Source: Rhizodiscina lignyota (taxonomy: Eukaryota). Taken from it: a stretch of DNA of 64,000 bases. Below the pieces are notes generated by a model. The model worked only from the letters and a program-made list of their open reading frames with translations, did not search any database and was not told where the DNA came from. How positions within the stretch are numbered: the first letter of the stretch is position 1; each line of letters opens with the position of its first letter. The DNA lies in contig ML978123.1 in NCBI GenBank assembly GCA_010015805.1, forward strand, positions 806,001 through 870,000. Reading direction: 5' to 3'. The position numbers were made by a program, and so were the translations under genes. This document shows, in pieces, positions 2,151 through 47,748 of the stretch.

Positions 2151-3645
2151 ATGTCTTCAGATGGCTTCACCCCAAAGTACCGGACAGAGATCCAGCAGGT
2201 ATGTGGTCCATTTCTTTTCGCTTTTACCGCAAGCCCTTCTGTTTGGGTTAAGCAAGTCGCGTGTTTTTCGCTTGATCGGAGTCGTGAACGCTCTAACACA
2301 CCACACGTTGTTTTGTTATTGTTTACTCTCTATCTCTATATATGCAATACTGTTATGGCTACCCCAGAACCTCATCCAATACATCAACTTGCGGGAACAC
2401 ATGAATTCCTCCTCGGATTACGATATGCCCGATGACTTCGTTGTCCCGGATGGCATCAACATCCACAAGGCGTGCTGGCTGCAGTGTCTTGGAGAAACGA
2501 AGCATGGCTCAAAACTTGCTCCGTCCTTTCCTTTCGATGACGACGCTGTCTTGAATAATGAGTCTACGTCTGGGTTCAAAATTCGGCTGATTCATTTGAT
2601 CGAGCAGATGATGTTCGTGTCTGGCGAAACGGGTGAAGCCGCGGTAGAAACGACTACGCTCATCGAAGAAATCGTTCGAAACCAGGTCCACCACATGGTA
2701 CGTTGCTTTCCTTCCCCATCTTGTGCTTTGAATAAATTGCTGACGAACAACACAGCTGAAGGAGAGCACCGATCTCGCGAACCGCCGTGGCAACCGTGCT
2801 ATCGCCACGACCGACTTGATGTATCTGATCCGCCATGACCGCGCAAAGCTCTCAAGACTTCGTCATTTCTTGCAGTGGAAAGACGTGCGCAAGAATGTCA
2901 AGGACAGCTCCGACGACAAGGGCGCTGGCGATGCAGGCGTTGATCTAGCAGGTGGTGACGAGGCCCTCGGCGCAGGTCTAGGTGCAGGTCCTGATGCGAC
3001 TGTCGACATGAAGAAGAACAAGAAGAACCGCGTCGAGCTGCCATGGGATGTCGCGAGCTACTTCTCAGAGCAAGTGCCTCCACGTGACGATGAAGAAGAC
3101 GAAGAGGAGGAGGAGATGAACTTCGCTACCCTTCAACGCCTCAAGTTGGCCGATGAGCGCACCAAGAACATGAGCAAGGAGGACTACATGCACTGGTCTG
3201 AATGCCGTCAGGCCTCCTTCACGTTCCGCAAGGGCAAGCGCTTCCGCGAGTGGGCTGGCTTTGGCGTGATCACCGACTCGAAGCCGAACGACGACATCAT
3301 CGACATACTGGGCTTCCTCACGTTCGAGATTGTGCAGACTCTGACAGAAGAGGCCCTCAAGGTCAAGGTGGAGGAAGATATGGCGAAGAAGCAGAGCGGT
3401 ATTGGCAAGGAGCAGCCCGGACACAAGAGGAAGAGGGAGCCAGGCTTGTTCGACTTGCCAGAGGAGGAGAGAGAACCTGTCAGCAAGGCGCATGTTCAAG
3501 AGGCGTTCAGGAGGACTCAGCAACTTAGCCTGAGGAGCAAGGCACTTGGACTGAGAATGCATATCATCAAACAGCCGCTGAAGCTGGTGAGTTTAAGACA
3601 AGACCGTGCTACATTGCTACATGTTCTAACATGAAACAGATTTGA
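2151..3645 (+). CDS. SPT3: SAGA complex subunit Spt3
   Basis: Motifs [62 protein letters not shown]. Exons 2151-2198, 2608-2697, 2756-3586, 3640-3645. Confidence 0.95.
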
Positions 3646-3971
3646 TCTTTCACCAGGAGGTGAATCAGACAGTCTCGGGAAACCTGAGATATTGAATGGC
3701 TGTGCATAGCCAAAAACTAAGGCGTTCTGGGAGTCGGGTGGTCACAAGGAATACCCCAAATGATTGTGAACGGTTATGATGGATGGATGATATCAACTTC
3801 ATCTGCGCATTTTCGAGGCGCAATCTTTGTTCGGCTACAAAGCCGTTGGTTTCACGATCAGAAACCCTTCTGATACCTGATGATGTACTTTACACCTTTT
3901 AATGATGACTCGACCCCGTTGATGGAGTTGCTTTTCATGTCATCCTGTGCTGCGGCCATTTGCAATATGCT

Positions 3972-4698
3972 CTACTTGGATCGCCATTGCTGAAGCTCCG
4001 CCTCGCTCAATTGCCTCAACTTATTCACGCTCGGCGCCTCGCCAGTCGCAACTCCCTTCACCACTTCGACGAACCCACCAATAGCAGTGCCCCTGCTCAC
4101 TGCATATTGTGCCGTGTGCGTCTGCACCTTGATCAGGACGATTCGCGGATCCTCTGGGCCGCCGTCGTGCTTGCCGTCGCCGAGGTCGCCAATCCAAGCC
4201 TTGAGAGCTGGAGAGTAGTACTGCTTCACCAAGTCGCGGTTGGTCTCGATGGTCGCCTTGCCAGACACGGATGCCCACTCTCCTGAATTGTTGAGGAAGC
4301 CTAGGTTGATTTCAGATCCACCTTCCTTGATGTCGTCTGTCTTGCCGGACTCGGAATTGGAATGGAAGATGAAGTCGACGCCGTTACTCTCCTGGTTTAA
4401 TGTCAGCTCAATGGCCCGTTCTTGCTTATGGAGTTGGAGGGAGGTGGTGTCGCACCTTCGCAGCGAGCGCCATGCATCTCGAAGCAAGAAGTCCGTCGCT
4501 TGTTTGGGTCGTCATCATGCAGAACTGCTCTCGGTTAGCTGCACTGCTAAGTCCTGGGGCAATCAATCCTACCTTGCACTTGTCGACGAAGCTTGTGAGG
4601 GCCTCCACCTTCTCCTTCAACGATGGCTCCTCAAGGTTCTTCTCCTTGTATGGATCAGCTGGCTTGCTACCAGTATCCGTATTGCTGAATGACGACAT
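3972..4698 (-). CDS. bli-3: Blue-light-inducible BLI-3 family protein (pyridoxamine-phosphate-oxidase-like fold)
   Basis: MSSFSNTDTGSKPADPYKEKN, KFCMMTT, LASRCMALAAKE, AWIGDLGDGKHDGGPEDPRI. Exons 4698-4573, 4524-4456, 4391-3972. Confidence 0.88.
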
Positions 4699-5241
4699 GG
4701 TTGAGACGTTGATTCTTTCGACGAGCTTATATGTTTTATGCGTCCGTTGTGCTTGAATTGAAGATTTTGGTCGCTGTGGGAGCGTTAGTATGCCGCGAGA
4801 AGCCATGATAGGAGACCTCTTTCGAAGAACTCTTCGACAATTGAGACGACGCAGAGAAACAGACATAATATTGAATATTCGATATAATTATTGAAAAGAC
4901 TCACCTGATGGTAATGGGGTTGAAAATTAAATTAAAGCGCGAAGGAAGTTGAGCTTAAGAAAGTTCGTGACCGTCGTGACTTCATAAAGACGCGCTAGAC
5001 GCGCACGCGACGTCATCGAAATGGTGAGATTTCGATCTCTATGCCATGGGGAAATAGGCCGAGAATCACGAGTTTTCCGACCAGCCTTACACAGCATGCA
5101 TACTAAAAATGTGCTTATTCTGATTTTAGTACACTTTGCATCTTGCAGATCCGCGAATGACGATCCATCCGCTCAACATCCATAACCATTTTCACTAAGC
5201 GACATTTGACTTTTCCATTTGAAATCCCGTTCCTAATTTCA

Positions 5242-6855
5242 CTATGCTGAGAAACTTTTGAGCTTTCCGATCACTGCTTTTTCGGGGGAGCGGTTGCCAT
5301 GACCTGCTCCAGCCAGGGCCACACTGAAGCATTAGCTTCGGGATAGCCCATATGCGCTCGCTTAGAGATGAACCTGCATTAAAACGTTAGCATCCTTCGT
5401 TACTTTGGCTCTAGCAATTGATCTCACCTTGCTTCTTTCGGGCTTCCGTATTCGAACAAGAGCATGCTATCTTCAATTGGCATGCATCCGTCATCAACTC
5501 CATTCATGAGCAACAATCTTGTGCTCGGCATATTGACAATTCCGGTTTCGACTAAGCTGAAAGTCTTTTGGCAGTTCTCCAACAACTCGTCCCACGTCTT
5601 GTAGCCATACTGTTGGAATTCGTCAGAGTCGCTATTGGGATGGACAGAAATACCATCACGTACCTTCATCAAATATGCTTCCTTCAAGCTGAATGGATAC
5701 TCATGATGGTCGACCTCTGCCAGCCACTCCTTCCCGATGTAATGATGCTAGACATTGTTAGTACAAATCCCACACACTCAATCCTGATCAACCTACCGTG
5801 CCTGCACCATGTCCAACGCATCCAGCAAGTTGCGAGGCATGAGTGTGGGCAGCGCGAATGGCGTAGTAGCCACCCGCCGACAAACCCCAACCGATCACCT
5901 TTGATTCATCCAGCTCCGGGTTCTCTGCGATCCACTCAAGGATCGCAGAGAAATATCGATCTGGGGAAAGCGGGTCGGTCTTGAGAGCTGGACAATCAGC
6001 AACGCCTGGGATATCACAGATCACTGTCGCCCAGCCGCGCTCTATTGCGCCTTCTGTTCGCTGTCCTCGTGTGTCAGCCAACAATCCGGAAGCATTTCCC
6101 AGAACATCTCACCTCGTAGTTGTCTGGTCTGTGCCCATCAAGTCCTGTAATGAGGAACATGACAGGAACTGGCTTGTCTACCGTCGACCCTCGCGGCATC
6201 CTGACATACAGAGGAATCTCCTTCCCATCACCCTCCTTTGCATATTTGTGCGGGATGATGACCTCTGTCATGACAGGATCCCATAGCCTCATGCCCTTCT
6301 CGTACACCTTCTTCTGCTTCTCAAACGCTTCCCGCTTCAACGGCGTGCCAATGTATGGAAAGCGGCTGAGGCGGTAGACGGTGGAGGCGCGCTTGTAGAG
6401 CGCAATGGCAAGTGCCTTGTCCGTAGACTCGGCGTCCTCCCCTCTCTTCGCAAGGTCCTCGGCGATGGAGAAGAAGGCGGAGGTGTAGGCATCGTTGTAG
6501 GGGTCGTTGATGTTATCTGTACCTCTGGGTAAGCATTGGGCTTTGTAAGAAAGCTGTCTCGAGCTCCATACTGCGGATGAGGAAGTCAAAGATGGGTTCG
6601 AAGTCCTCGAGCTTGCCGTCATGGAATCTAGCACCATCCGTGAGCCATTGCGAACTCTGCATGAAACGACACGCAGTATACGCACGGGTAGACGCCTAAG
6701 GTGCACTGTAAAGTCTCGTCAGCTTCGTTCAATGGCCATCAAAGAGGGGCACATACAGGAAATTTCCATCTCGTCTCCCACAGCGTTTTTATGCTGCCCT
6801 GATGGCCGAAATCCGTCTTGAACAAGCCATGCTGTTCCAAAATCCAGTTTACCAT
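5242..6855 (-). CDS. ayg1: Ayg1-like alpha/beta-hydrolase (polyketide chain-shortening, DHN-melanin related)
   Basis: Spliced N-terminus [29 protein letters not shown] (includes 20-nt exon 6686-6705), [10 protein letters not shown], nucleophile GLSAGG, C-terminal HMGYPEAN. About six introns; stop TAG at 5244-5242. Confidence 0.87.
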
Positions 6856-7584
6856 TTTTACCAGCTTTCAGACACCGTGAAGGAGCCTCGACTTTTAGTT
6901 TCTATGTCTTCAATAATCGCGCTGCGGAGCCCAGCTATGGCTATATTCGGGCGCCGCCTCGGACTTGTGGGGGTCCGGAGACTGCCCTGAGGCCGGTAAG
7001 GTATATTGATTGGCTGCTGACATTGTTTGAGAAATATTAAAGATCTGTATTCTTAAATGCTGAAGCAAAATTGTAAATAGGAAGCCTCTCTGCTATGACC
7101 TTGATGGTTGTTTGTTGGAGAGAAGGAGGGTCGGAATGCTGGTGTCCCAAAATTAGGATGGCTACTAGATCTGCTTTTCAATGGTTCTTGATTCGCCAGA
7201 ATATTGATTGTGATTATTCGAGAGATTTAGGGAATCAGGAACTAGGAAGAGATTTGTACATTGATAGACTGCACATAAGAGTTGTCGCTCGATTCCACAA
7301 GCAATGTGACACTGGTTCATTTTGCAAATGGGTTTCAATTAGTCTTACTTCCTACATCCCAGCTAATGTACAATCCAAGAACCTCGAATGCAGTTGCCCA
7401 TACTGATACAACAAAGCAAATGCTAGCCTCCAATGAATTGACCACCCTGCTGAATCGACGAATGGATCAGAACTCCGCCTATGGCCCCAAGACTCCCTTA
7501 AATGAGACTCAACGAAAGGACAAAGGAAACCATAAGCACGACATGGAATCAAGGAAAGTCCGAGAGAGCGACATCATATCCTTC

Positions 7585-9138
7585 TTAGTGCGTCCCATTA
7601 ACCTGAGCCTTCTTTCCCACCAATTGCTGCCCATTCGTCGGCTGGGCCTGCTCTTGCTGTGGCATTCTCGCCAGCCATTGAGGCGGCTGAATGCCAGTCT
7701 GGTCGTTGATCGTCTCAAGCAGCGGCGGCAGGCTCTGGAACAGGTTGCGAATCGGCGCCGTAGCATCCGCCTCGCCCTGCGCGCCAGTGTTCCATACGCT
7801 GATCTTAGGCTGCATGCCCTTGACGGCCGTGGCGTTCGCCTCCGCGAGTTTCGTGTACGTGCCGTCCTTCAGCATCAAGTACTGCATGAGACCCTGTGGT
7901 CCACCCAGCGCTTGAGCGAGGTGGCCGTATGCCTTCGCCATCTCACCCAGACCCTCTGCCTCCTTCTGGCGCGCGTAGAACGCAGCATCTGCCTCGCGCT
8001 GCTCCGCATAGAAGCGCGCATCCGACTCGGCCTTGCGCTCGTACTGCACACCCTCCGCGCGCTTCTGCGCAGAGTACAGGTCCGCATCGGCCTGCTGCTG
8101 CGCCGACTCGCGCGCAATCTTCGCCTGCGTGACGGTCGTGGCACGCAGACGCTCTAGCTCCATCTCCGCGCGCTTCTGCTCGACGACGGTCTGCAGCTCG
8201 GTGTCGCGCTCCTCGGCAGCGCGCTGCGCGATGATGCGCGCGAGCTTGAGTTCCTTCCCGATCTGGATCTCCTTGTCCGTGAGCTTCGCGTCGGCGGTGG
8301 CCTTCTCGCCCTTGCGCTCGGTTTCGAGGACGGCGGTCGCGGCGTTGATCTTGGCGATCTCCTGCTTCGTGCGGCCGAGCTTCTCGGCTTCTCCGATTTC
8401 ACCGCGCATGCGGGCGTCTGCGACGTCGACCTTGGCCTGGTTGAGGGCGCCTTCGTGGGCCTTGCGGGAGAGAAAGGCGAAGTATTCACTGCCTGGGGTG
8501 TCTTGCAGCTCCTTGACGTTGGCATTGTAGCTGTATTAGTTATTAGTAAAATTAATTCAGTGCGGCAGCGAGAAGAAAGGGTTGGGGGTGACTCACATCC
8601 TCAAGCCAAACTGGTCCAATTCGCTCTGGACGTTGTGAATCACCTTATCTTTGAACACCTTCCTCTCCTTGAACAGCTCCTCCATCGTCATCGTCGACAC
8701 AATGCTCCTCGTCTCCCCTTCAATGATGCCCTTGACGATATCTTGCACATGACTGCGACCACTTCCGACAGCGACAGCGCCACTCGCCGTCGTCACCGCC
8801 TTGGTACCATCGGCTTCACCAGTAAGCAGGATTGCATATTTTTGCAGCGAATCCAGAGAGTCGTCAGGGCCGATAGTGAAGACAGCAGGGAGCGAAAACT
8901 TCAGTTTCTCAATGGTCATCGCCTGCAGGTTCATGGAGAAGTCGAAAGGCGTGATAGAGATTTTGGTGACTTTCTGGAAAGGATAGACAAGGGCCTTCTT
9001 CTTAATGAGGACCTTCTCAATCCCCGCACCTGTGATGACCAGGTACGAGTTTGGCTCGGCAACATGATACCTGACAATGGAATGTTAGCAGTGCTATCGA
9101 CCATTGCGATTTGTATACTGGTGTACGTACCACATCAT
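7585..9138 (-). CDS. Flotillin (SPFH domain plus coiled coil)
   Basis: MMWYHVAEPNSYLVITGAGI, FSLPAVFTIGP, GIIEGETR, YNANVKEL, Ala/Glu-rich coil, QPKISVWNTG. Exons 9138-9131, 9070-8597, 8530-7585. Confidence 0.93.
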
Positions 9139-35876: not shown

Positions 35877-35959
35877 TGTCCCGTGCTCTGAAATTGTGAG
35901 ATCCCTGCAACCATTTCACGTCCACTTGCGACGCTCATATATTGAGACTGCCGAGGAAA

Positions 35960-37285
35960 ATGAGACGGAGCCTTGTATCTTGGTCCACTGGATTCTCACG
36001 CAGAGCGACGACATTCCCTCCGTCAACGCTTCTGCCGTTCCTATATCAGACGAAAACCATCCAATCCTCAGGGGTTACCCTCCAGAACATTAGACGACAT
36101 CGAAGCACAAGGCACACCGATGGAGAGACCAATTCTCGGGCCACGCATATTCCATTTGACAATGTCACTGAAACAACTCCGGAAGCTAGTACCGGTGGTG
36201 CTGGTGGCCCAGAAAAGACGACTCTCAGCGCAGCCGAACAAGAAGCCTTTGCAAAGTTATTCGACAAGCTAGCCTCTAACCAGATTAGGAAGCCTTCAAT
36301 TGCTCTGAAAACTCCATCACAGGAGGCTAGCAAAGGCACTCAACCTCTAATATCAAAACTGAGACAGCGTGATGCTGTGTTGGCTCGCCTCCCCTCATCT
36401 CTAAAGTCGATAGCTGAAGCCGCTGGGGCCAGGATTGAGGATGTGCAGTCAGAGCAAGAGCAAGGAATTCATTCTACCACCGGTGACGCTGCTACGACAG
36501 ACCATGATGAAAATGCATGGCCACATACACAAGAATCAGAACCGGAACTTGACCGTCAAGCTAAAGAGCACATTCGCAACATTGAAGCGCTCATAGAAGA
36601 ACAAGACACCGACATGAAAGTATGGGACATTCTTCAGACGAAAGTTTTTGAGCCACTGCACGCCTTAAATTTGGATTTGCCTTCGCACGCGAAGGAAGCC
36701 AAACCTAATGCCAAAACTCGAGGACGGCCAAAGGGGACCCAGCCTCAAATCAGCCCAGAGCTCCTGACAGCAACGCTCCCGCAGATCATAGCCTTCGCCC
36801 TGGACCACTTCCACACGAAGTATCCAGCCTCTCCACTCTCTACTACGCTTCTGCCCCACCTCAAGCAAGTTTCACGCACCGCACATCTCCTCTCGCTCAC
36901 ACCCGGGCTCTACGCATCTCTACTCCGGATCACCTGGGCCCGCACGACCTCCCCGCACCGTATCGTCTCCATCCTACAGGAGGTGGAGACTGAGGGCGTG
37001 GAGCTGGACCGCTCGGTTTTGGCCTCGCTGACGACGATTCTCGCAGAGGCGGAGGACATGCGCACGGGGAAATGGGGGAAGGTTGTGCAGATGGTTAGTG
37101 GGTTTGAGGGCTGGGCGGATCAGGTAGAGGTGCTGAAGGAGGGCTGGAGACCGCTTATCCATCAGAGGATAGTGGATGCGGCGTTTAGGGAGGTGCGTGA
37201 GCAGGAGGCTAACAGTGAGGCTAGCGGGAGTAGTGGTGAAGAGATCAGCGGGGATACTACTTCGATTAGACACAGCGGGCATTAA
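35960..37285 (+). CDS. Mitochondrial Mtf2-like protein
   Basis: Arg/Ser-rich presequence with LLPFLYQTKTI; C-terminal helical block LYASLLRITW...IVSILQEVETEGVELD typical of the Mtf2-like domain. Confidence 0.7.
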   Translation: MRRSLVSWSTGFSRRATTFPPSTLLPFLYQTKTIQSSGVTLQNIRRHRSTRHTDGETNSRATHIPFDNVTETTPEASTGGAGGPEKTTLSAAEQEAFAKLFDKLASNQIRKPSIALKTPSQEASKGTQPLISKLRQRDAVLARLPSSLKSIAEAAGARIEDVQSEQEQGIHSTTGDAATTDHDENAWPHTQESEPELDRQAKEHIRNIEALIEEQDTDMKVWDILQTKVFEPLHALNLDLPSHAKEAKPNAKTRGRPKGTQPQISPELLTATLPQIIAFALDHFHTKYPASPLSTTLLPHLKQVSRTAHLLSLTPGLYASLLRITWARTTSPHRIVSILQEVETEGVELDRSVLASLTTILAEAEDMRTGKWGKVVQMVSGFEGWADQVEVLKEGWRPLIHQRIVDAAFREVREQEANSEASGSSGEEISGDTTSIRHSGH

Positions 37286-38000: not shown

Positions 38001-39238
38001 CTAGCTTTGTGGTGGATGCAAAGCTACTCGCCATTGAAGTATCGCGAATATAAGCTGCGCAATACTAACTAACAAGCCTACGTCCAAATGAGTCTCTCTT
38101 AAGGCGCTACTTCTGACGGGATGTTTTCATCGACGGACTTACCAAGGAAGCTGAAAATCACACTTAGAAATAACCCTACTATGGCAACAGTCAATGCGTT
38201 TCGCTCAGACGTATGTCTTTCGAACCAGGCTACAAGCCAATTGGCCGGAGGAGGGTTGTCGACAATATCCAACAGCTTCAGCAGCCGATCGCCCCAGAAT
38301 TCATACAGAAATTCATCCAGCGGCTCACGCACATGCCCTTCATCAGTTTTGGCATTAGGATCAAACCCCTCCTTCTGGACAAGCTTATCCAGAAACCTTT
38401 TGGATTTCGAGTCTGTCCCAATCGGGAAAAGGACGAAATGAATGGAGTCAAGCGTCTCCAGAAGGAGTTGTGGAGGTAACGTCCCACTACAGGCTAGACG
38501 TCAGTTTGAATGTGGTCGGTGGCCCATCTCATACTGTTTCATTCATTTCACTTACATCTTGAGGCTCTCCTCGAAGCTTAGGTCGATTGGTTGATTAAGC
38601 GAACGCAGAAGCTGGGCTTTTAAGAAGCCCGTGTGGTGGAAAATTTTCACGCTGCGCTCTTCTGGATCGTATAGCAAGTGCTCTCTGATGTCATCCGTTG
38701 CCCGAAAGTTGATGTTGTATCGCTTCTTCAGTTTCCATGCTTTCAGTCGTTTCTTTTGTGCGAGCGCCCCTCGTATCCTGATATTGCGAGTGGCGTCCTG
38801 CCGTGGGAAGCATCCCTGCACGAGGTCGACGAACTGTACGTCGTGTTCCCACTTCAATGGAACGAAATCGTTCAGAGTGAACCCCGCAGGATAGCTCTGT
38901 TTAGATTCGCAATCCAGCATGAAGGTTACACGAACTAAGGACCGTATCGCGGCTGCTTTATCTTTGTCCTGGCTGCCGCTGGAATTGAGACGGACCATCA
39001 TCTCATTGTGCGTCTGCGATGGGTCCGCTCTGAGATCCTTTGAGAAGGCGATAACACTGTCGTGCGATTCGAAAACCGGGTTGTCAAGTAGGATAACAGC
39101 ATCTTTGATGCTAGAGGGGCATATGACCTTTTCATAAAATTCCAGGTACGTAGCGTACTGTTCCAATTTTTTGGAGGCGCCGTCACATAAGAACGCCTCC
39201 GCGATTTTCTGCAGATCCAGCTTGCTCGGAGGTTCCAT
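38001..39238 (-). CDS. Uncharacterised 367-aa protein with C-terminal transmembrane segment
   Basis: Exons 39238-38556, 38486-38143 and 38077-38001 sum to 368 codons; both donors are GTAAGT. C-terminus WFERHTSERNALTVAIVGLFLSVIFSFLGLLVSIAQLIFAILQW. Confidence 0.82.
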
Positions 39239-39984
39239 CCTGGGTTGAAGTGTACATCACTCATTCTAAGCCTTTTATTCTACAGACAGGACGGCCACAT
39301 AAATTTATCTCTTTCGACAGTGTTGTCAGGTTCGCCTATCATCTAATTCGCACGACATATGCAGCGCCCGCTTCGGGCGATGCATGATGCCCAAGGTAGC
39401 TGGGCAACTCGGCTGTGCTAAGCCACCCTTTCTGGAGTCTACGCAAACCAGCTGCGGTCATTCCAAAATCCAGGCAGCATTTAAGCAACCAATACGTTCG
39501 CCTTCAAGCTCCAGGCACCTACGATACACCGATGGGGTGTGAGAGGCGGGGAACTGCTCAAGGCGTACTTGCACCGCCACAAACTTGCCCAAGTCGTGCG
39601 TGGCCACGCATAGATTCGCTTCAGCGGTCTTGCCAACTTTCCCTTCTCTTTTACTTTCATTTCCCGCCCTGCGCAAATTCTATGTGAGGCACTACCGTCT
39701 CAAGCTCTAGACAGTTCGTTCATGACCGTTCATCTAGACTCGAAGCCGCGCGGCACAAGGCTGACAAGCTAGATCATTAAGAATTTAAGAGAACTAGTTC
39801 GATCATTTTGGGCTTCGATTGTTTATCATTCTTGACCTACAGCACGGCCTACTTCACCCGTTGTACTGCGGGTGCCGCAAATTTAAGCACGCTTATCTAG
39901 CTTCCGGATGCAATTGCCTCGATTATTTTCTGGTCTCCTCCAGCACAACAGGCGCATCCGCCATCAGAGTTCTCAGGAAACAAA

Positions 39985-42900
39985 ATGGCTACCACCATTG
40001 TGTCTTCATATTCCACCGAACTCTCTCATTGCGTCTCCGATTCTTCAGACGACCAAGCGACTGACGGTCCATCCGGGTAATTCGTGCCCCATATAAAGTA
40101 AAGGTGTCGTCATGATGCTCATATACTCTAGGTCCTCGCTTTTGATACAACAATCAGGCCATGTACCCAATGCTCCATCTCACAATCCTTTGCTGCCTGC
40201 CGTGCCAATTCATCAACCTGTGTCCCATACTTCTGATCATGTCGATGGGGAACCAAATATCACTAGCTCCGGAGTTGCGCCACTACCTTCCTCCTTCTCC
40301 TCCTTACAAAGCCCAAGTTTGAGCGCCACAACAATAACTCCTGCTTCGCCCGACTTTAGAGGCCGTTTAGCTCTCCCAGGATACAAAGCGGATCCGATAA
40401 TCTACGTATATCCACATGCTCCAGTCCCCCGGGAACACCTCGATCGAGCACCTCGGGTTATACAAATATTCCGCGAAAATGTCTTCAATTCAAAAGAGAA
40501 GATTGTGAGTGGAAAGTATTTGAAAGATCAGATTGCGATGGTAGATTATGTGGTGAAAATGTGCGGACCTTCTCCTGCTGAGGCAAGGCCCTCGATATTG
40601 GCGATTTGCACCCCAAAGACTCTTCCAGCTCTGAAAAAGGAACTCACTCAGCCTCACGTTCGATCCCAATATTGCCAGAATGATGGCCCTGGGTATCTTT
40701 CTCGCCTTATGGGAAAGAGGGACACCATTGATGTTCCCAGACCCCAATTTGGCCTATATTTCTGGGCAGACCGTGCTGGACCCAGGACACTCTGCTGGCA
40801 CGTTCCTGGCATACGCAAATCCAAAACCAGCACAGGGCCATTGGCTAGCCTCATGTTATGTGGATCTCGCATACGTCCCAGAGACAAGAATTCGACCAAC
40901 TCTTCGACCTTCGCTACTCTTGGTTGCGTATTACATATTGACTCCGAATTTTATGGCTTGACCGTCGCCCACGTGTTTAGAACAGCCACAACTACTGGGT
41001 CCAAGGCCAGTGACCACAGACGGGCGGAAGTGAATGATAGTGGCGGCTGCAATGAACCTATCGGGAGTAGCACAACCGAAAGCGAGGACGAGAATAGCAT
41101 CGTTGATTTCGATGAGGACTACGACTTTTCAGATGAAGATGAGGACGAGTCGGAAATAGAAGAGAACAGCGAGGTATCTCCCACTTTTACGGACCCTTTA
41201 AGTGAAAGGGAGGGTGGGGGATTCTCAAGGGCAATGATTGATATGCCAGGCAATGAGTGTACGGGCAATGAGTGGGCAGACGTTGAACACGTAACAATCC
41301 CTGACGATCATGGTCTCATTCCAGACCACTCAGACTTCGATTGGGCAGGCCTCAGAATGGCTACACCGCTAAAGCGGCTCCCAAATGCTTATATTGTATG
41401 TGGCAGAGAAACCAGCGTGCAGGTCATTTCCGATATCGCAACAGGTCAGCCTCAGAGACCGAGGAACGTTCACATCATCTCATCGTACGCAACCACAAAA
41501 CATGGCGTTCTTCTTCCTGGGAGCTCATTCGTGGGAAGCCTGAGCGGGCGGGGCCCTTCTGAAGTCTGGAACGTCTCGATGTCTGATTCCAATGGTCAGT
41601 GATGAAATCTCTCTCCAAATATTTCAGTATTTATCAAACAATTGGCTCACTCAACCAGGTATTGAGCCGGGAGACTCTGGTTCTTTAGTCGTGGATGCTG
41701 TCACACACATTGCCTATGGTCATGTTGTGGCATCTAATCCCCTTGGGCAGGTCTATATTGCTCCATTGCCTGCCGCCGTGGAACAGATTAAAGCGGTCTT
41801 CAAGACCAGTGCAGTTCGCCTTGCTGATCCATTACGTCTACTGAGAGACAAGTTGATCACATACTTTCAATCAAAAACCTTTACGGACAACTTACGAAAA
41901 GAAGATATGCTTGCTTTCCATGCTTTCTCGAGGCTAGTTCAGGAGTATGCAGCAGGGAAGGCTTCTTCACAGCTCATGACCCCGCATTTTGATAGGACTG
42001 CTGTAAGTAATAACATGTTCAAACCCTACCAAACATTTCCAGCGTATCAATCATATCTGATTTTACTCAGCTCCAGTATACTTTGAAGGACTGTGACTGC
42101 AATATGACGAAAATGGCCATAACGGATGTGCTTGACTCAAGGACCAAACTGGCCGAAGGTGGCTTTGGCACTGTGTACCAAGTAAATATCTCGAAGGATA
42201 TCTGGCCCATTGTTCCTTTGAGCAGCAACGCCAATCCAGTTGTAAGTATAAAGCAACGATTATCCTGTTACGTGGCTAATTGCAGACCGACATACAGTTC
42301 GCGTGCAAACGATTACCCATGAAAACCAATCACGTCAGCCAGTGGCAAACTGAAGCTACAGTCCTTCAAAAGCTGAGGAAACACTCCAATGAACACATCA
42401 TAGAGTTGTTAGCGAATTTCTCAGCTGGAGACAGCTACTATCTTATCTTCCCGTTGGCCGAGTGCGATCTGGATTCTTACATGTCATCGGACCCTCGCTC
42501 ATCAGATGGACCTTATATAACCTGGATGTTGAGACAGTTTGAAGGCCTAGCATCAGCACTGAAACTGCTTCACAGTTCGTTGGATGGTGGACGATCAGCT
42601 GGAACTCATCACGATATCAAGCCTGCGAACATTCTTGTTTTCAATTCAAGCAATGAGTCTTCACAGGATACGCAATCAACGTATGGGACGCTGGTACTTG
42701 CAGACTTTGGGTTGTCGAGCGTTCAAACAAAACCCTTCTCAGCCACGCGTGGGTGCGCATCAGGGTCGAAGTTGTGGAATAGTCGAAGTCGAGCGGACCC
42801 ACTGTATGCAGCGCCGGAGAGCGAAATCCCTTCACTAGCGCATCCAAACATGGGGAGTGTCGACATCTGGAGCCTTGGTTGTGTTATGATAGAAGCCTGC

Positions 42901-43941
42901 GTTTGGCTGACGTATGGTGCGGAGAAGAGATTGCAGTTCTTGAAGGAGTTACAATCCGATACTACCAGTAACTCACCATCGTACTATGAGGCTCATGCAA
43001 CAGCTTCGGACGTTAGATTCTACCTCAAGCCGCAGGTGTCGACATGGATGACATCGCTTCTGGAAAATAGTAAAGGCAATAGGATGCTACACAGAACTAT
43101 AGATCTCCTGACGAATGGTCGTATCCTGGATCCCGACCCCAATTCCAGGCCAACAGCTTCAGAATTGGTCGTCAAAATCCGTGCAATCTTGCAGGCGGAA
43201 GAAGCTTCACTCCACGAGAGCGCTAAATCATCCTCGGACAATACCCCAGTGTGGACTCGTACTTGGGTATCCCTTAAAACAGAGTCGTGTGACAAAGAGG
43301 CTGTGGACAGCGATACCTATTGTCAGTCCGATGTCACCGCATCACCGTCATCTGAGAGCGAGATAAGGCAACAGCATACGGCGAGACCCGATTGCCTTCA
43401 CCCATCAGACTTGGATAGCCTCGGCCATGAGCCGGACGAGATCCCTATCGGACATGCACCATTGAAGCAACTGTGCCCCTATTGCACGGAATTCGGAAGG
43501 CCGAAGTCTCTGAAATATCACATTACAGCTAAACATCGGCTTGCACACCCTCATGAATGCCCAAAGTGTGGTCGCTTATTCAGCCAAAGCGAGCATCTGT
43601 CTACACATCGAAAAGATGGTTGCTTTCCACCTGAAGCTTCGTCTCGACTGTCTTCCGGTTACCACGCTGCTGGGAAAGGGAGCATCACTTCAAATGATGA
43701 TCCTATGCATTCTAACGCATCAGATATACGGTGCAAAATCGATGCGGAGAGCCAATCAATTTCTGCCATTGAAGAATCACCGCCAGAGCCACAATCAATT
43801 AGCACTCATAGCGCTCCCGTGTGTCACACTCATCCGTGTACGGACAGTATTGCTCACCCCCCTGGAGCAAAGGGAATGAGGAGCGGTGGTGTCAAGCGGT
43901 ACCCTCGTGGTCGTACTGGCCCAACAGTGGAGAGTTTTTGA
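39985..43941 (+). CDS. Trypsin-like serine protease / Ser-Thr kinase / C2H2 zinc-finger fusion protein (1241 aa)
   Basis: Exons 39985-40076, 40132-41594, 41659-42002, 42071-42241 and 42286-43941 join in frame (1242 codons). Protease motifs GLTVAHVF, DFDWA, GDSGS. Kinase motifs EGGFGTV, FACK, HHDIKPAN, DFG, AAPE, DIWSLG. Two C2H2/C2HC-type fingers. Confidence 0.8.
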
Positions 43942-44815
43942 ATGATCCTCTCAAATCCAGGACGACAAAGGAAGCCGTACGGAAGGTGATATGTTTGGAA
44001 TCAGGTATCGCTTTTTGGTCATATCTTCGGTTTTTTGTAATTCCTTTCTCGCATTCCGAATAGGTTCCAGCTCAGTTTCCTAAGGAAGGAGACGGATACA
44101 GAGCATGGAAAACCAGCCGGGAGAGAGCCAGGAGAGAGAGTCTCGTATTGATTCATAGGTCGCACGTTATGAATGTTTTGATGGCATTCGGTTATGCACT
44201 TTTGGGTGAATTGATACCCTTGAGTATATCTTAGCATTCTCTTTCCTTTTGCAGCAATTTCCAAACCATACCAGCACCAAAGATATCTTTGTAGTCTCTT
44301 CGCTGCTTTACCGGAAATCTTGGTCATGTAAAATCATCACCACCACCGCCGTGCCTGTGCAAGGACATCAGGAAGTCCACTCTTTACTCGCCCCTTTCGG
44401 TCTTTTTCTTCCTTAATTTTGCAATTGCGTCTCATCTCAGCAGTTATAGTAATGAATACAATATCGTCCGTTCCTCCGCAACAATTTTGTGAACACATCC
44501 GCTTTACCTACTAAATCTGTGAAGCTTTGTTGCCGAATTCAGCGTTGGCATTAATTATCATGCATTGCCGCTCGGCAATTATTTTGGACGGCAGCTCATT
44601 GGTCAAGCGTGCGCCAAGGCAGCTGTGCCACCTCAAGAGTTAAAAGATCCACATTCACTTCCACCACCCTCACTTCTACAAATCCGCCACCCCCAGGAGC
44701 GCGCCATGCCACATCCACTTAAACACTGAAAGTCTACGCCAAATCGCTTTCCAACACCAATTCCTATATCCAACGCGACTTATCGCACGCGACTTGACGT
44801 AAACTCAACGACAAG

Positions 44816-47748
44816 ATGTCCGGTCGCAAAGACTTTCTGAACCAGCCCGCGCCAGAAAATTACGTCGCTGGTCTCGGTCGAGGTGCCACCGGCTTCACAA
44901 CACGATCTGATCTCGGTCCTGCGCGCGAGGGACCTAGCGAGGACCAGATTAAAGAGGCGCTTGCCAAACGTGCCGCGCAACTTGGAGCTGCTCCGCCCAC
45001 TGCGTACGGCGCGACCGAGAAGAAAGAGGAAGATGATGACGACGACCGATTCCAGGACCCTGACTCCGAGTTCGGCCTCTTCGCGAATGGCGTCTACGAC
45101 AGGGAGGATGATGAAGCGGACAGGATATACCAGGATGTGGACGAGAAGATGGAGAAGCGGAGGAGGTTGAGAAGGTTAGTCTCCCCGTTACTACACTGCC
45201 CTCATATCCGCCGCTTGTTTAAGTACTTCTTGCGCAAGTATTGGCAGCGTTTTTGTTTCAATCCAGCCGTTAAACGGTGAACAGTATACCGACTTGAGTT
45301 TCGTCCAGGGAAGCACGCGAGAAGAAAGAACGCGATGAATACGAGCGCAACAACCCGAAGATTCAACAACAATTCGCAGACTTGAAGCGCGAGCTCGGCA
45401 GCGTCACCGACGACGAGTGGGCGAATATACCAGAAGTCGGAGATCTGACGGGCAAGAACCGACGGACAAAGCAGAATCTACGCCAGCAAAACAGATTCTA
45501 CGCTGTTCCTGACAGCGTTCTTGCTGGTGCCCGAGATGCGGGCCAATTCGACACGACTCTCAACGATGATGAGCCACCGGCAAATAGGGAGAGCGACGGG
45601 ACCGTCACGAATTTTGCAGACATCGGCGCGGCAAGAGAAAGGGTGCTCCAAGTGAAGCTGGATCAAGCTGGGCAAGGCTCAGGCACAGATTCAGTGGCAG
45701 GAACGTCGACGAACATTGATCCCAAGGGCTATATAACTAATCTTGTCAAGTCGGAGCTCAAGGCCGCCGAAATTCCTGTCGGAGACATCAAGCGAGCGCG
45801 TGTGCTCCTCGAGTCCGTCATCAAGACGAATCCTAAGCATGGCCCTGGCTGGATCGCTGCTGCACGTTTGGAAGAGTTTGCTGGCAAGATTGTGGCTGCT
45901 AGGAACGTCATTGCGCGAGGATGCGAATTCTGTCCGAAGACCGAAGATCTCTGGCTGGAAAGCATTCGACTGAATGAGAAGCGCAACGCCAAAATCATCG
46001 CTGCGAATGCCATCAAGCACAACGACCGCTCTGTGCGACTGTGGATTGCAGCTATGCAATTGGAAACAGAGCCTCGAGATAAGAGGAAGGTTTTGCAGAA
46101 AGCTTTAGTTGCAGTGCCACAGTCTGTTGCCCTCTGGAAGGAAGCTGTCAATCTCGAAGAGAATCCCGCCGATGCACGTCTGATGCTTGCCAAAGCCACT
46201 GAACTCATTCCCCAGTCCGTAGAGCTTTGGCTTGCACTAGCACGTCTGGAGACTCCGGATAACGCCCGTTCCGTACTGAACAAAGCCCGCAAGGCCATAC
46301 CTACGAGCCACGAAATCTGGGTGGCTGCTTGTCGTTTGGAAGAGCAGATGGGCAATACCGGTATGGTCCTGAAGGTCATGGAACGTGGTATCAAATCACT
46401 GGCACGAGAATCAGCCATGCTGAAGCGCGAAGAGTGGATCACGGAAGCCGAGAAATGTGAGGAAGAGGGCGCGATTTTGACGTGTGGTGCAATCATTCGC
46501 GAGACACTTGGATGGGAACTTGACGAAGATGATGACCGCAAAGACATCTGGATGGACGATGCACGTAGCAGCATTGGCAGAGGCAGATATGAGACTGCAC
46601 GTGCAATTTACGCCTACACCCTGCGCGTCTTCCCAACCGGAAAGAGCGTGTGGCTCGCCGCTGCGGATCTAGAACGCAGTCATGGCAGCAAGGAGGCGTT
46701 GTGGAGTGTTCTGGAGAAGGCAGTCGAAGCATGTCCACGTAGTGAAGTGCTGTGGATGCAGCTTGCGCGTGAGAAATGGCAAGCAGGATCAATCGACGAC
46801 GCGAGACGGGTGCTGGCCCAGGCATTCAATCAAAATCCGAACAACGAGGACATCTGGCTCACTGCTGTGAAGCTCGAAGCAGACAACAAGCAGATAGACC
46901 AGGCCAGAACGCTGTTAGACGACGCAAGACGAGAAGCTGGTACAGATCGCGTCTGGATTAAGAGTGTTGCGTTCGAAAGACAACAGGGCAATCCAGATGA
47001 GGCTCTCAATTTGGTGAATGAAGGCCTACAACGCTATCCCAAGGCTGCGAAGCTCTGGATGCAAAAGGGCCAAATTTACGAAGCCCAAAACAAACTGCCC
47101 CAAGCCCGAGAAGCCTACACAACTGGCACGAGAGCCTGCCCAACGTCCGTTCCACTCTGGCTCCTGTTGTCACGCGTCGAGGAGAAGATCGGTGCCGTCG
47201 TCAAGGCGAGATCTGTTCTAGACCGGGCGAGACTGGCTGTGCCTAAGAATGCTCAGCTCTGGACCGAGAGTGTGCGTCTCGAGAGACGAGCGAACAATAA
47301 GGAAGCGGCCCAAAAGCTCATGGCCCAGGCCCTCCAAACCGTCCCTGTCGCCGAATCTGGCATGTTGTGGGTGGAGAGGATATGGTATCTCGAGCCACGC
47401 ACTCAGCGGCGACCACTGGCCGTCGAGAGCGTCCGGAAGGTTGACAACGACGCCGTGCTCTACGTCACCGTCGCGCGCATCTTCTGGGGCGAACGCAAAC
47501 TCGAGAAGGCCGCGACCTGGTTCGAGAAGGCGATCCTGCTCGACGCGGATCTCGGCGATAGCTGGGTCTGGTATTGGAAGTTTCTGAATCAGCACGGCAC
47601 GGAGGAGAAGAGGGCGGAGGTGCTAGCGAAGATTGCACTGGCGGAGCCCAAACATGGCGAGATCTGGCAGGCGGTCAACAAAGCACCTGAGAATGCTGGG
47701 AAGAGCGTTGAGGAGATCCTGAAGCTGGCCGCGGCGAAAGCTGAATGA
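44816..47748 (+). CDS. PRP6: Pre-mRNA splicing factor Prp6 (S. pombe Prp1), HAT-repeat tri-snRNP protein
   Basis: DFLNQPAPENYVAGLGRGATGFTTRSDLGPARE, PKIQQQFADLKR, DPKGY, many HAT repeats. Intron 45175-45308. Confidence 0.97.

Follow-up and report, generated by a model that had tools for sequence, protein, structure and literature searches.

A head-to-head gene pair in Rhizodiscina lignyota encoding a predicted protease-kinase-zinc finger protein and a putative membrane partner

The stretch of DNA described here, referred to as the window, is 64,000 nucleotides long and covers positions 806,001 to 870,000 of contig ML978123.1 (C3:806001-870000) in the genome of Rhizodiscina lignyota (33.4 Mb in 33 contigs; labelled G000). 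Its intron signals, and the taxa in which relatives occur, are those of an ascomycete. It contains two divergent genes. Gene A would encode a serine protease, a kinase and two zinc fingers in a single chain, and gene B, at 39238-38001, is its head-to-head partner. An earlier reading made from the sequence alone (the sequence-only reading) described gene A; gene B was absent from it, and its pairing with the protease is a conserved feature of the family. In what follows, genomic and metagenome loci are given as L### and protein sequences as P####, with P0001 a Kalmusia protein of 1383 amino acids.

With splicing read from sequence signals, gene A runs from an ATG at 39985 to a stop at 43941 in five exons separated by four canonical introns, and would give a product of 1241 amino acids with no internal stop. 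Its exons and introns, together with the landmarks of the protease, are as follows.

39985..40076, + strand: exon 1, Ser/Asp-rich, 30 codons, ATG context ACAAAATGG; the least certain exon
40077..40131, + strand: intron 1, 55 nt, phase 2, GTAATT..TAG
40132..41594, + strand: exon 2, with a low-complexity leader, the N-terminal alpha/beta domain, the first barrel with His311, the acidic insert and Asp434
40394..40774, + strand: N-terminal (pro-/NAL1-N-like) domain, about residues 119-245, placed from the homolog model and the NAL1 alignment
40970..40972, + strand: predicted catalytic His311 (TVAH); His in 112 of the 113 alignment rows with a residue here
41027..41224, + strand: stretch where the disordered His-Asp insert is most acidic, predicted local distance difference test score (pLDDT) below 50 in the homolog model
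41339..41341, + strand: predicted catalytic Asp434 (FDWA); Asp in 112 of 114 rows
41595..41658, + strand: intron 2, 64 nt, phase 1, GTCAGT..CAG, directly before GDSG
41659..42002, + strand: exon 3, with the GDSGS nucleophile Ser525, the end of the second barrel and a helical extension
41676..41678, + strand: predicted nucleophile Ser525 (GDSGS), placed from the family alignment
42003..42070, + strand: intron 3, 68 nt, phase 0, GTAAGT..CTGAT..CAG; alternative in-frame acceptors 42076 and 42088
42071..42241, + strand: exon 4, with a short linker and the kinase Gly-loop (LAEGGFGTVY); 53% identity to L032 over 36 columns
42242..42285, + strand: intron 4, 44 nt, phase 0, GTAAGT..GCTAAT..CAG; alternative acceptor 42297
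42286..43941, + strand: exon 5, with the kinase body to about 43191, a linker, two C2H2-type fingers (43474-43623) and a tail

That four GT-AG introns join the open reading frame fragments into one protein was confirmed by a listing of splice signals and by frame tests. The exact phase agreement claimed for them holds in that a full open frame exists, but the fit is not unique, with 12 of 120 donor/acceptor combinations open. All 12 use the same four donors and differ only in their in-phase acceptors (42070/42076/42088, 42285/42297 and 41658/41688). Acceptor 41658 is preferred over 41688 because the latter would delete the GDSG that homology calls for; for introns 3 and 4 more than one acceptor fits. 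The GC content of the introns is 34-40%, as against 47-52% in the exons. Nothing in the orthologous locus L032 matches exon 1, and translation could start instead at the in-frame ATG of 40112.

Relatives of gene A also join protease and kinase. A search among long proteins (2984 candidates) gave a single match, P0001, whose residues 121-489, 491-598, 773-800 and 818-1261 are collinear with exons 2, 3, 4 and 5, both fingers included. P0001 is itself a gene model, and DNA evidence weighs more. The metagenome locus L032 holds an orthologous cassette, with identities of 41% in the protease exon (451 columns), 48% in the kinase and 51% in the partner. Here a single stop-free frame of 407 codons spans the distance from GDSG to the kinase Gly-loop. 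This frame contains a GTAAGT about 15 codons further on than the position of intron 3, where similarity to P0001 stops; it may include an in-frame intron, and either way no stop lies between protease and kinase. Intron 2 keeps its position and phase in L032, and the paralogs L003, L004, L005 and L007 likewise break before GDSG; the donor of intron 4 also has the same position and phase in L032. In L093 a protease, a GATA zinc finger and an RD-type kinase occur within one open frame of 1466 amino acids (2821-7218, - strand), head-to-head with a partner gene.

From these comparisons it is very probable that protease, kinase and fingers form one gene. Two adjacent genes, a protease followed by a kinase, or a decaying locus with frames that fit by chance, would suit the short linker (140 amino acids from GDSG to the Gly-loop, compared with 293, 301, 350 and 390 in four relatives, hence 150-250 shorter) and the absence of a full-length annotated product of gene A from the long-protein search results. 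Several acceptor choices fit the frame. Such an arrangement is nevertheless very improbable, given the collinear Kalmusia protein, the stop-free frame and shared introns 2 and 4 of L032, and the union of protease and kinase in L093. In addition, exon 4 carries the Gly-loop in phase with both neighbouring exons, and every catalytic motif of gene A is intact. A search from the kinase side for long fused proteins gave P0185, a kinase protein of 1699 amino acids, and no other; this search was weak and missed even P0001.

The protease has a complete triad in chymotrypsin order, His311, Asp434 and Ser525, as the sequence-only reading had it, and these residues are conserved across the family. A three-row profile of the protease detects 1035 representatives (clusters at 50% identity) at E 0.001 or better, and the family alignment consists of 117 rows, 114 from the top 150 profile matches plus three query pieces. 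Of 83 rows at the nucleophile position, 63 have Ser and 19 have Cys. The strand before GDSG is present and GDSG itself absent in 39 of the 114 rows, a pattern that intron-blind gene calling would produce by ending at the conserved intron 2. The long acidic insert between His and Asp also stands (123 residues, 28% D/E), and such a spacer is a family-wide trait (median 110 amino acids, 23% D/E). No signal peptide is seen, again as first described, with KD19 no higher than 0.28 over the first 60 windows, and the whole chain has no membrane helix (hydropathy maximum 1.41). A secreted digestive trypsin was rejected on the missing signal peptide and the acidic insert, and a pseudo-protease on the intact triad. 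Judged by its motifs, the protease is likely to be active.

The fold was tested on the protease region of the Kalmusia homolog, which is 28-44% identical by exon to the window's own chain. The model of this region (pLDDT 81, predicted template modelling score (pTM) 0.82) is confident outside the acidic insert. With Foldseek the top match is rice NARROW LEAF 1 (NAL1; E 8e-6; PDB 8pn2, 7y77 and 8hau), and VIA aligns 278 residues to NAL1 at Z 15.9 with a root-mean-square deviation of 5.7 (model residues 10-444 against NAL1 92-461). The match takes in the N-terminal domain and both barrels, in the same arrangement as the N-terminal and trypsin-like domains of NAL1; for the barrels alone the Lysobacter L5 protease is equal on Z. 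The 50 VIA matches listed are all trypsin-like folds, with Z 10.4-15.9. Both searches match the homolog model to PA-clan folds, in agreement with the protease type first proposed, and gene A itself has a GxSG-type nucleophile motif and the ordered His-Asp-Ser(Cys) of that clan. By modelled fold class and by triad, gene A is predicted to encode a cytosolic PA-clan serine protease. Unlike the structural match, identity to NAL1 is only 11-13%, with no match at the sequence level; a search of PDB sequences with the protease profile gave nothing significant, NAL1 included. We know of no kinase tail or partner gene of NAL1. Atlas feature neighbours that contain 11-19% Nal1 families score 0.85-0.88.

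In the homolog model the barrels start at about residue 155, after a low-confidence loop (136-151) that separates the N-terminal domain from the first barrel. A loop of this kind is the usual pro-domain junction in proteases of the alpha-lytic type, and Ssy5 zymogens are comparable. By analogy, the loop at about residues 250-270 of the gene A protein is a first candidate for a self-cleavage site. A cut between protease and kinase, as proposed earlier, loses its priority, since the junction of N-terminal domain and barrel is at least as likely.

The kinase retains Lys698, Glu713, HHD-IKPAN with Asp800, DFG830 and APE, so that the description of a kinase with catalytic motifs and HHD instead of HRD was correct; from these motifs it appears catalytically complete. 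C1087 and C1115 are the first residues of the two C2H2-type fingers. Pfam detects Pkinase (1.8e-18) and, below cut-off, zf-C2H2 (0.005), and nothing else in gene A. The HHD had been linked to the non-RD kinases of innate immunity. As an immune signature this does not hold up: six of eight related kinases in G000 are non-RD, and the protease-kinase fusion of L093 has HRD. Among the fusions the catalytic loop reads HHD in gene A, HMD in L032, HGD in P0001, P0048 and P0110, HQD in P0111 and P0156, and HRD in P0093 and L093. Non-RD status appears not to be diagnostic of function, being common in this group of fungal kinases, and was rejected as proof of immunity. With regard to a receptor-type architecture or descent from the IRAK/Pelle/RLK clade, the gene A product has no membrane helix. 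Elsewhere in G000, at C1:3285436-3290687 (L009, L010), two divergent HGD-type kinase genes lie about 4 kb apart.

At the C-terminus of a conserved protease, the kinase is only one of many modules that can be exchanged. Pfam families were sought in 71 relatives from the top 150 matches, of which 60 have GDSG and a tail of at least 150 amino acids and 11 are other long proteins. A kinase, thought at first to be the defining partner of the protease, is present in only 7 of them, from Alternaria, Fusarium (three), Xylariales, Apiosordaria and Clohesyomyces. Other families at Pfam E 0.01 or better are RRM (6), DUF6590 (3), C2H2 (3), ankyrin (2) and PH (2), with one each of NB-ARC, TPR, zf-CCHC, PHD, VWA, HLH, amino-acid permease, CC190 and Trypsin_2; 37 have no Pfam family, some proteins carry two, and some of the fusions may be artefacts of gene models. 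Five of the 71 (P0038, P0040, P0042, P0046 and P0085) have a CorA-like membrane domain, below cut-off, as their own tail, and these are possibly all-in-one protease-membrane effectors. An intronless fusion of protease and HET occupies a single frame of 1450 amino acids at L030:2984-7333 (- strand; G000 C14, about 451-456 kb). A fusion with an F-box is found at L067:535-3750 (- strand), head-to-head with a partner gene.

Gene B lies on the other side of a spacer that is probably a promoter shared by the two genes.

39239..39984, no strand: intergenic stretch of 746 bp between the divergent start codons
38556..39238, - strand: gene B exon 1, which holds the conserved basic KKxLKAWKLKKR and FHH motifs
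38555-38487, - strand: gene B intron before exon 2
38143..38486, - strand: gene B exon 2
38142-38078, - strand: gene B intron before exon 3
38001..38077, - strand: gene B exon 3; the spliced product is P0002, 367 amino acids

The head-to-head arrangement recurs in G000 and in most metagenome clusters with enough upstream sequence. All five partner-family matches in G000 are head-to-head with a protease paralog. The sixth protease of this genome, the protease-HET fusion, has a remote partner at 7771-8451 (+ strand) of L030 in the same arrangement (E 2e-10), and the pair is present at 6/6 protease loci. A metagenome scan yielded 66 partner loci in 49 clusters at 90%. When at least 3 kb of upstream sequence is available, 17 of 21 clusters carry a protease (one, L097, weakly), always upstream and on the opposite strand; when at least 3 kb is available downstream, a protease occurs there in 0 of 19. 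Six more clusters with shorter flanks show the protease, and 22 have too little flank.

The product of gene B belongs to no Pfam family. Its model (P0002; pLDDT 92, pTM 0.85) consists mainly of helices, has three short strands, and ends in a hydrophobic helix of 38 residues (325-362). A fold search of the PDB gave long-helix matches only (best Z 5.1, over residues 306-367), Foldseek nothing at E 0.001 or better in the PDB or viral libraries, and a search of PDB sequences with the partner profile nothing significant. The Atlas neighbours of P0002 are only unnamed ascomycete clusters. Gasdermin is absent from the fold matches listed; the gasdermin domain is rich in sheet, unlike the mostly helical model of P0002. 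The predicted structure has no recognised fold in searches that used the whole chain, C-terminal helix included, which does not establish a new one. The best-conserved stretch is basic (net +6, residues 161-200), and one may speculate that it binds acidic lipids or the acidic loop of the protease.

Parts of this arrangement are found in several known systems. In fungal gasdermin-protease clusters (het-Q1/het-Q2 type) a small membrane-acting protein likewise has as its neighbour a cytosolic multidomain protease whose sensor-type domains vary, in several copies per genome; according to the available text, more than 80% of fungal gasdermin genes adjoin multidomain protease sensors with repeat, nucleotide-binding leucine-rich repeat (NLR) or kinase-like domains (PMC12881547). 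The A/B cassette too has an adjacent multidomain protease with variable domains. However, the protease in those clusters is S8 or CHAT, whereas here it is of the PA clan (chymotrypsin-like), and the partner here is mostly helical, ends in a hydrophobic helix, matches no Pfam family or known fold, and is proposed to be cleaved and toxic. The cassette is not filed as a gasdermin cluster. Prokaryotic protease-effector defence modules, as far as their available description goes, combine trypsin-like proteases with diverse sensors and co-evolve with a neighbouring effector that stays latent until it is cleaved (bioRxiv 10.1101/2025.11.14.688446). B was not found to be related to those effectors, and fungi are unmentioned in the main text of that paper.

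Two fungal signalling proteases are also similar in part. SltB of Aspergillus nidulans, about 1250 amino acids long, is a self-processing filamentous-fungal protein with a kinase fold and a chymotrypsin-like protease (PMC4557415, PMC4985261). In the accessible description its pseudokinase is N-terminal and lacks VAIK, HRD and DFG, its protease is C-terminal, and it acts on a separate C2H2 factor (PMC4557415). Gene A, in contrast, has the reverse domain order, keeps Lys698, Asp800 and DFG830, has its fingers in the same chain and is accompanied by a head-to-head partner; an SltB ortholog was rejected since order and kinase state differ, the two being set apart by architecture as SltB is described. 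Ssy5 (MEROPS S64, PF08192) resembles the predicted product of gene A in being a fungal PA-clan protease of the cytosol that has a pro-domain; it acts in signalling and works with a membrane protein. PF08192 has no match in the window's exons or P0001 (E up to 1), nor in the 71 relatives (E up to 0.01). In the accessible text of a survey of fungal serine proteases, S64 members are single-domain and mostly single-copy (PMC5567314), unlike the multidomain proteases here with their six copies.

The same text makes no mention of the protease family (PMC5567314); 'trypsin' and 'protease' are absent from that of a Sordariales NLR survey (PMC12258605), and PMC13475620, in its available part, concerns gasdermins only. 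No description of the family or of the A/B pair was found in the literature covered, with subscription papers and survey supplements, which may list these proteases, largely outside that coverage. What looks new is the head-to-head protease/membrane-protein cassette, the fusion of kinase and protease being already known, in reverse order, from SltB. Interest rests mostly on the cassette; the kinase-finger fusion alone is less remarkable given SltB and the at least nine protease-kinase fusions besides gene A in this analysis.

That A and B work together is likely. A tentative reading of how they do so, with somewhat less than an even chance of being right, is a two-gene cassette of sensor-protease and membrane effector; its logic is that of the gasdermin-protease clusters with a different protease class and effector. 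In its favour are the recurrent pairing, the correlation of protease and partner distances in 22 pairs (Mantel rho 0.68, p 0.0002; two pairs dropped for short matches), the exchange of modules, the conserved catalytic residues and the PA-clan fold. The predicted product of gene A consists of an N-terminal NAL1-like/pro domain, a double barrel with a long acidic loop, and an exchangeable C-terminal module. This module, here the kinase and two C2H2 fingers, would serve as sensor or bait, and its perturbation would release the protease from a zymogen state. The released protease would cut its cognate partner B, which as the effector would then carry out a defence or cell-death response at a membrane. 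The part given to B, a cleaved effector in defence or cell death, likewise falls just short of even probability.

A number of points weigh against the sensor-effector cassette. B resembles no known pore-former in the fold searches, and its one C-terminal helix would be just as compatible with a plain tail anchor. Many tails bind nucleic acid (RRM, C2H2, GATA, PHD and homeodomain) and would fit released cargo as well as bait. HET is itself a death-effector domain, and where it is fused to the protease the HET tail, rather than B, may be the effector. The protease is absent from 4 of the 21 clusters with a long upstream flank, and many metagenome loci come from one assembly series, so that not all clusters are independent species. 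The reverse frequency, of proteases that have B, was counted in G000 only. The correlation of protease and partner distances shows co-inheritance of a linked cassette and not physical co-evolution, and the nearest neighbours of protease and partner agree in only 11 of the 22.

The same pairing can be read in other ways. B may be the membrane-bound anchor or sensor by which A is held or licensed, with a signal leading to a self-cut of A that frees the kinase-finger part (or HET, GATA or RRM) to act elsewhere, e.g., in the nucleus. An Ssy5-like release of a kinase-finger fragment had been suggested by the sequence-only reading; it is a plausible analogy with a precedent in SltB, and is ranked below the cassette reading. 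SltB, in the available text, cuts itself into its pseudokinase and protease parts, and it also cleaves the transcription factor SltA (PMC4985261). Further, NAL1 is the closest fold among solved structures and has one entry determined together with an FZP peptide, the protease-kinase linker varies widely in length (140 vs 293-390 amino acids) and is not conserved in sequence, the nucleic-acid-binding tails would suit such a release, and an Atlas feature neighbour at 0.89 has 15% S64 members, a lead only. This anchor-and-release scheme is nonetheless on the unlikely side, because six copies per genome with unrelated tails (among them HET, NB-ARC, TPR and ankyrin) resemble a conflict system undergoing diversification more than a pathway with one copy, as S64 members mostly are, and no conserved cleavage motif is seen between protease and kinase. 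Less probable still, and distinctly unlikely, is a toxin-antidote or allorecognition pair in which A or its tail is harmful and the cognate B an inhibitor, with death following a haplotype mismatch after hyphal fusion or in spores. Tight one-to-one linkage with co-divergence and the HET-fused paralog would agree with it, as would the precedent of het-Q, where a protease gene takes part in incompatibility, so far as the available text describes it (PMC12881547). A membrane-anchored inhibitor of a cytosolic protease would be less economical, however, and remote B-like domains occur without a protease.

The short list of executioners of regulated cell death in fungi comprises gasdermins, HeLo/MLKL-like proteins, HET and patatin. 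The sensor-effector cassette would be a candidate for a further class, unseen by Pfam in that there is no curated match for either protease or partner. A protease family of modelled NAL1-like fold is also placed in fungi by this analysis, with 1035 clusters matched by the protease profile and six copies in G000. A wider version of this reading is possible, though with a probability well below even: an undescribed immune or cell-death system widespread in ascomycetes, in which NAL1-like proteases with swappable sensor or decoy domains (kinase-zinc finger, HET, NB-ARC, TPR, ankyrin, RRM, GATA, F-box and CorA-like) act with a cognate, proteolysis-activated membrane effector of new fold. If true, fungi would have their own equivalent of the paired NLRs with integrated domains known from plants, and of gasdermin-protease pairs; the executioner class would be new, and the nucleophile would switch from Ser to Cys within one protease family. 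If the anchor-and-release alternative were true, the family would be a modular proteolytic signalling system that frees very different cargos.

The cassette is flanked on the left by a gene of the MTF2 family (35900-37285; Pfam 3e-21) and on the right by a gene at 44798-47748 that we take to be PRP6-like. Neither of these housekeeping-type genes has a match in the metagenome loci L032-L097, and conserved synteny with them was rejected on that ground. The unmatched flanks are consistent with a movable cassette.

Some members of the protease family depart from the common layout. The paralog at L028:5585-6343 (+ strand) has a Cys nucleophile (GDCGS) followed by an apparent second copy of the N-terminal domain; across the family GECGS is common. 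P0044 and P0080 contain two GDSG motifs each and are probably tandem protease domains. In the paralog at L026:4997-6523 (- strand) a weak homeodomain match (E 0.0019) occurs between the catalytic Asp and the GDSG exon. On the partner side, L072:6064-8551 and L082:5627-8555 (+ strand), two of the four long-flanked clusters that lack an adjacent protease, hold remote partner-like domains. Both have upstream open reading frames on the same strand with a Cys-rich CPY..K..P motif, maybe part of the same gene as a different fusion, and in L082 a HET gene is found downstream of the partner-like domain.

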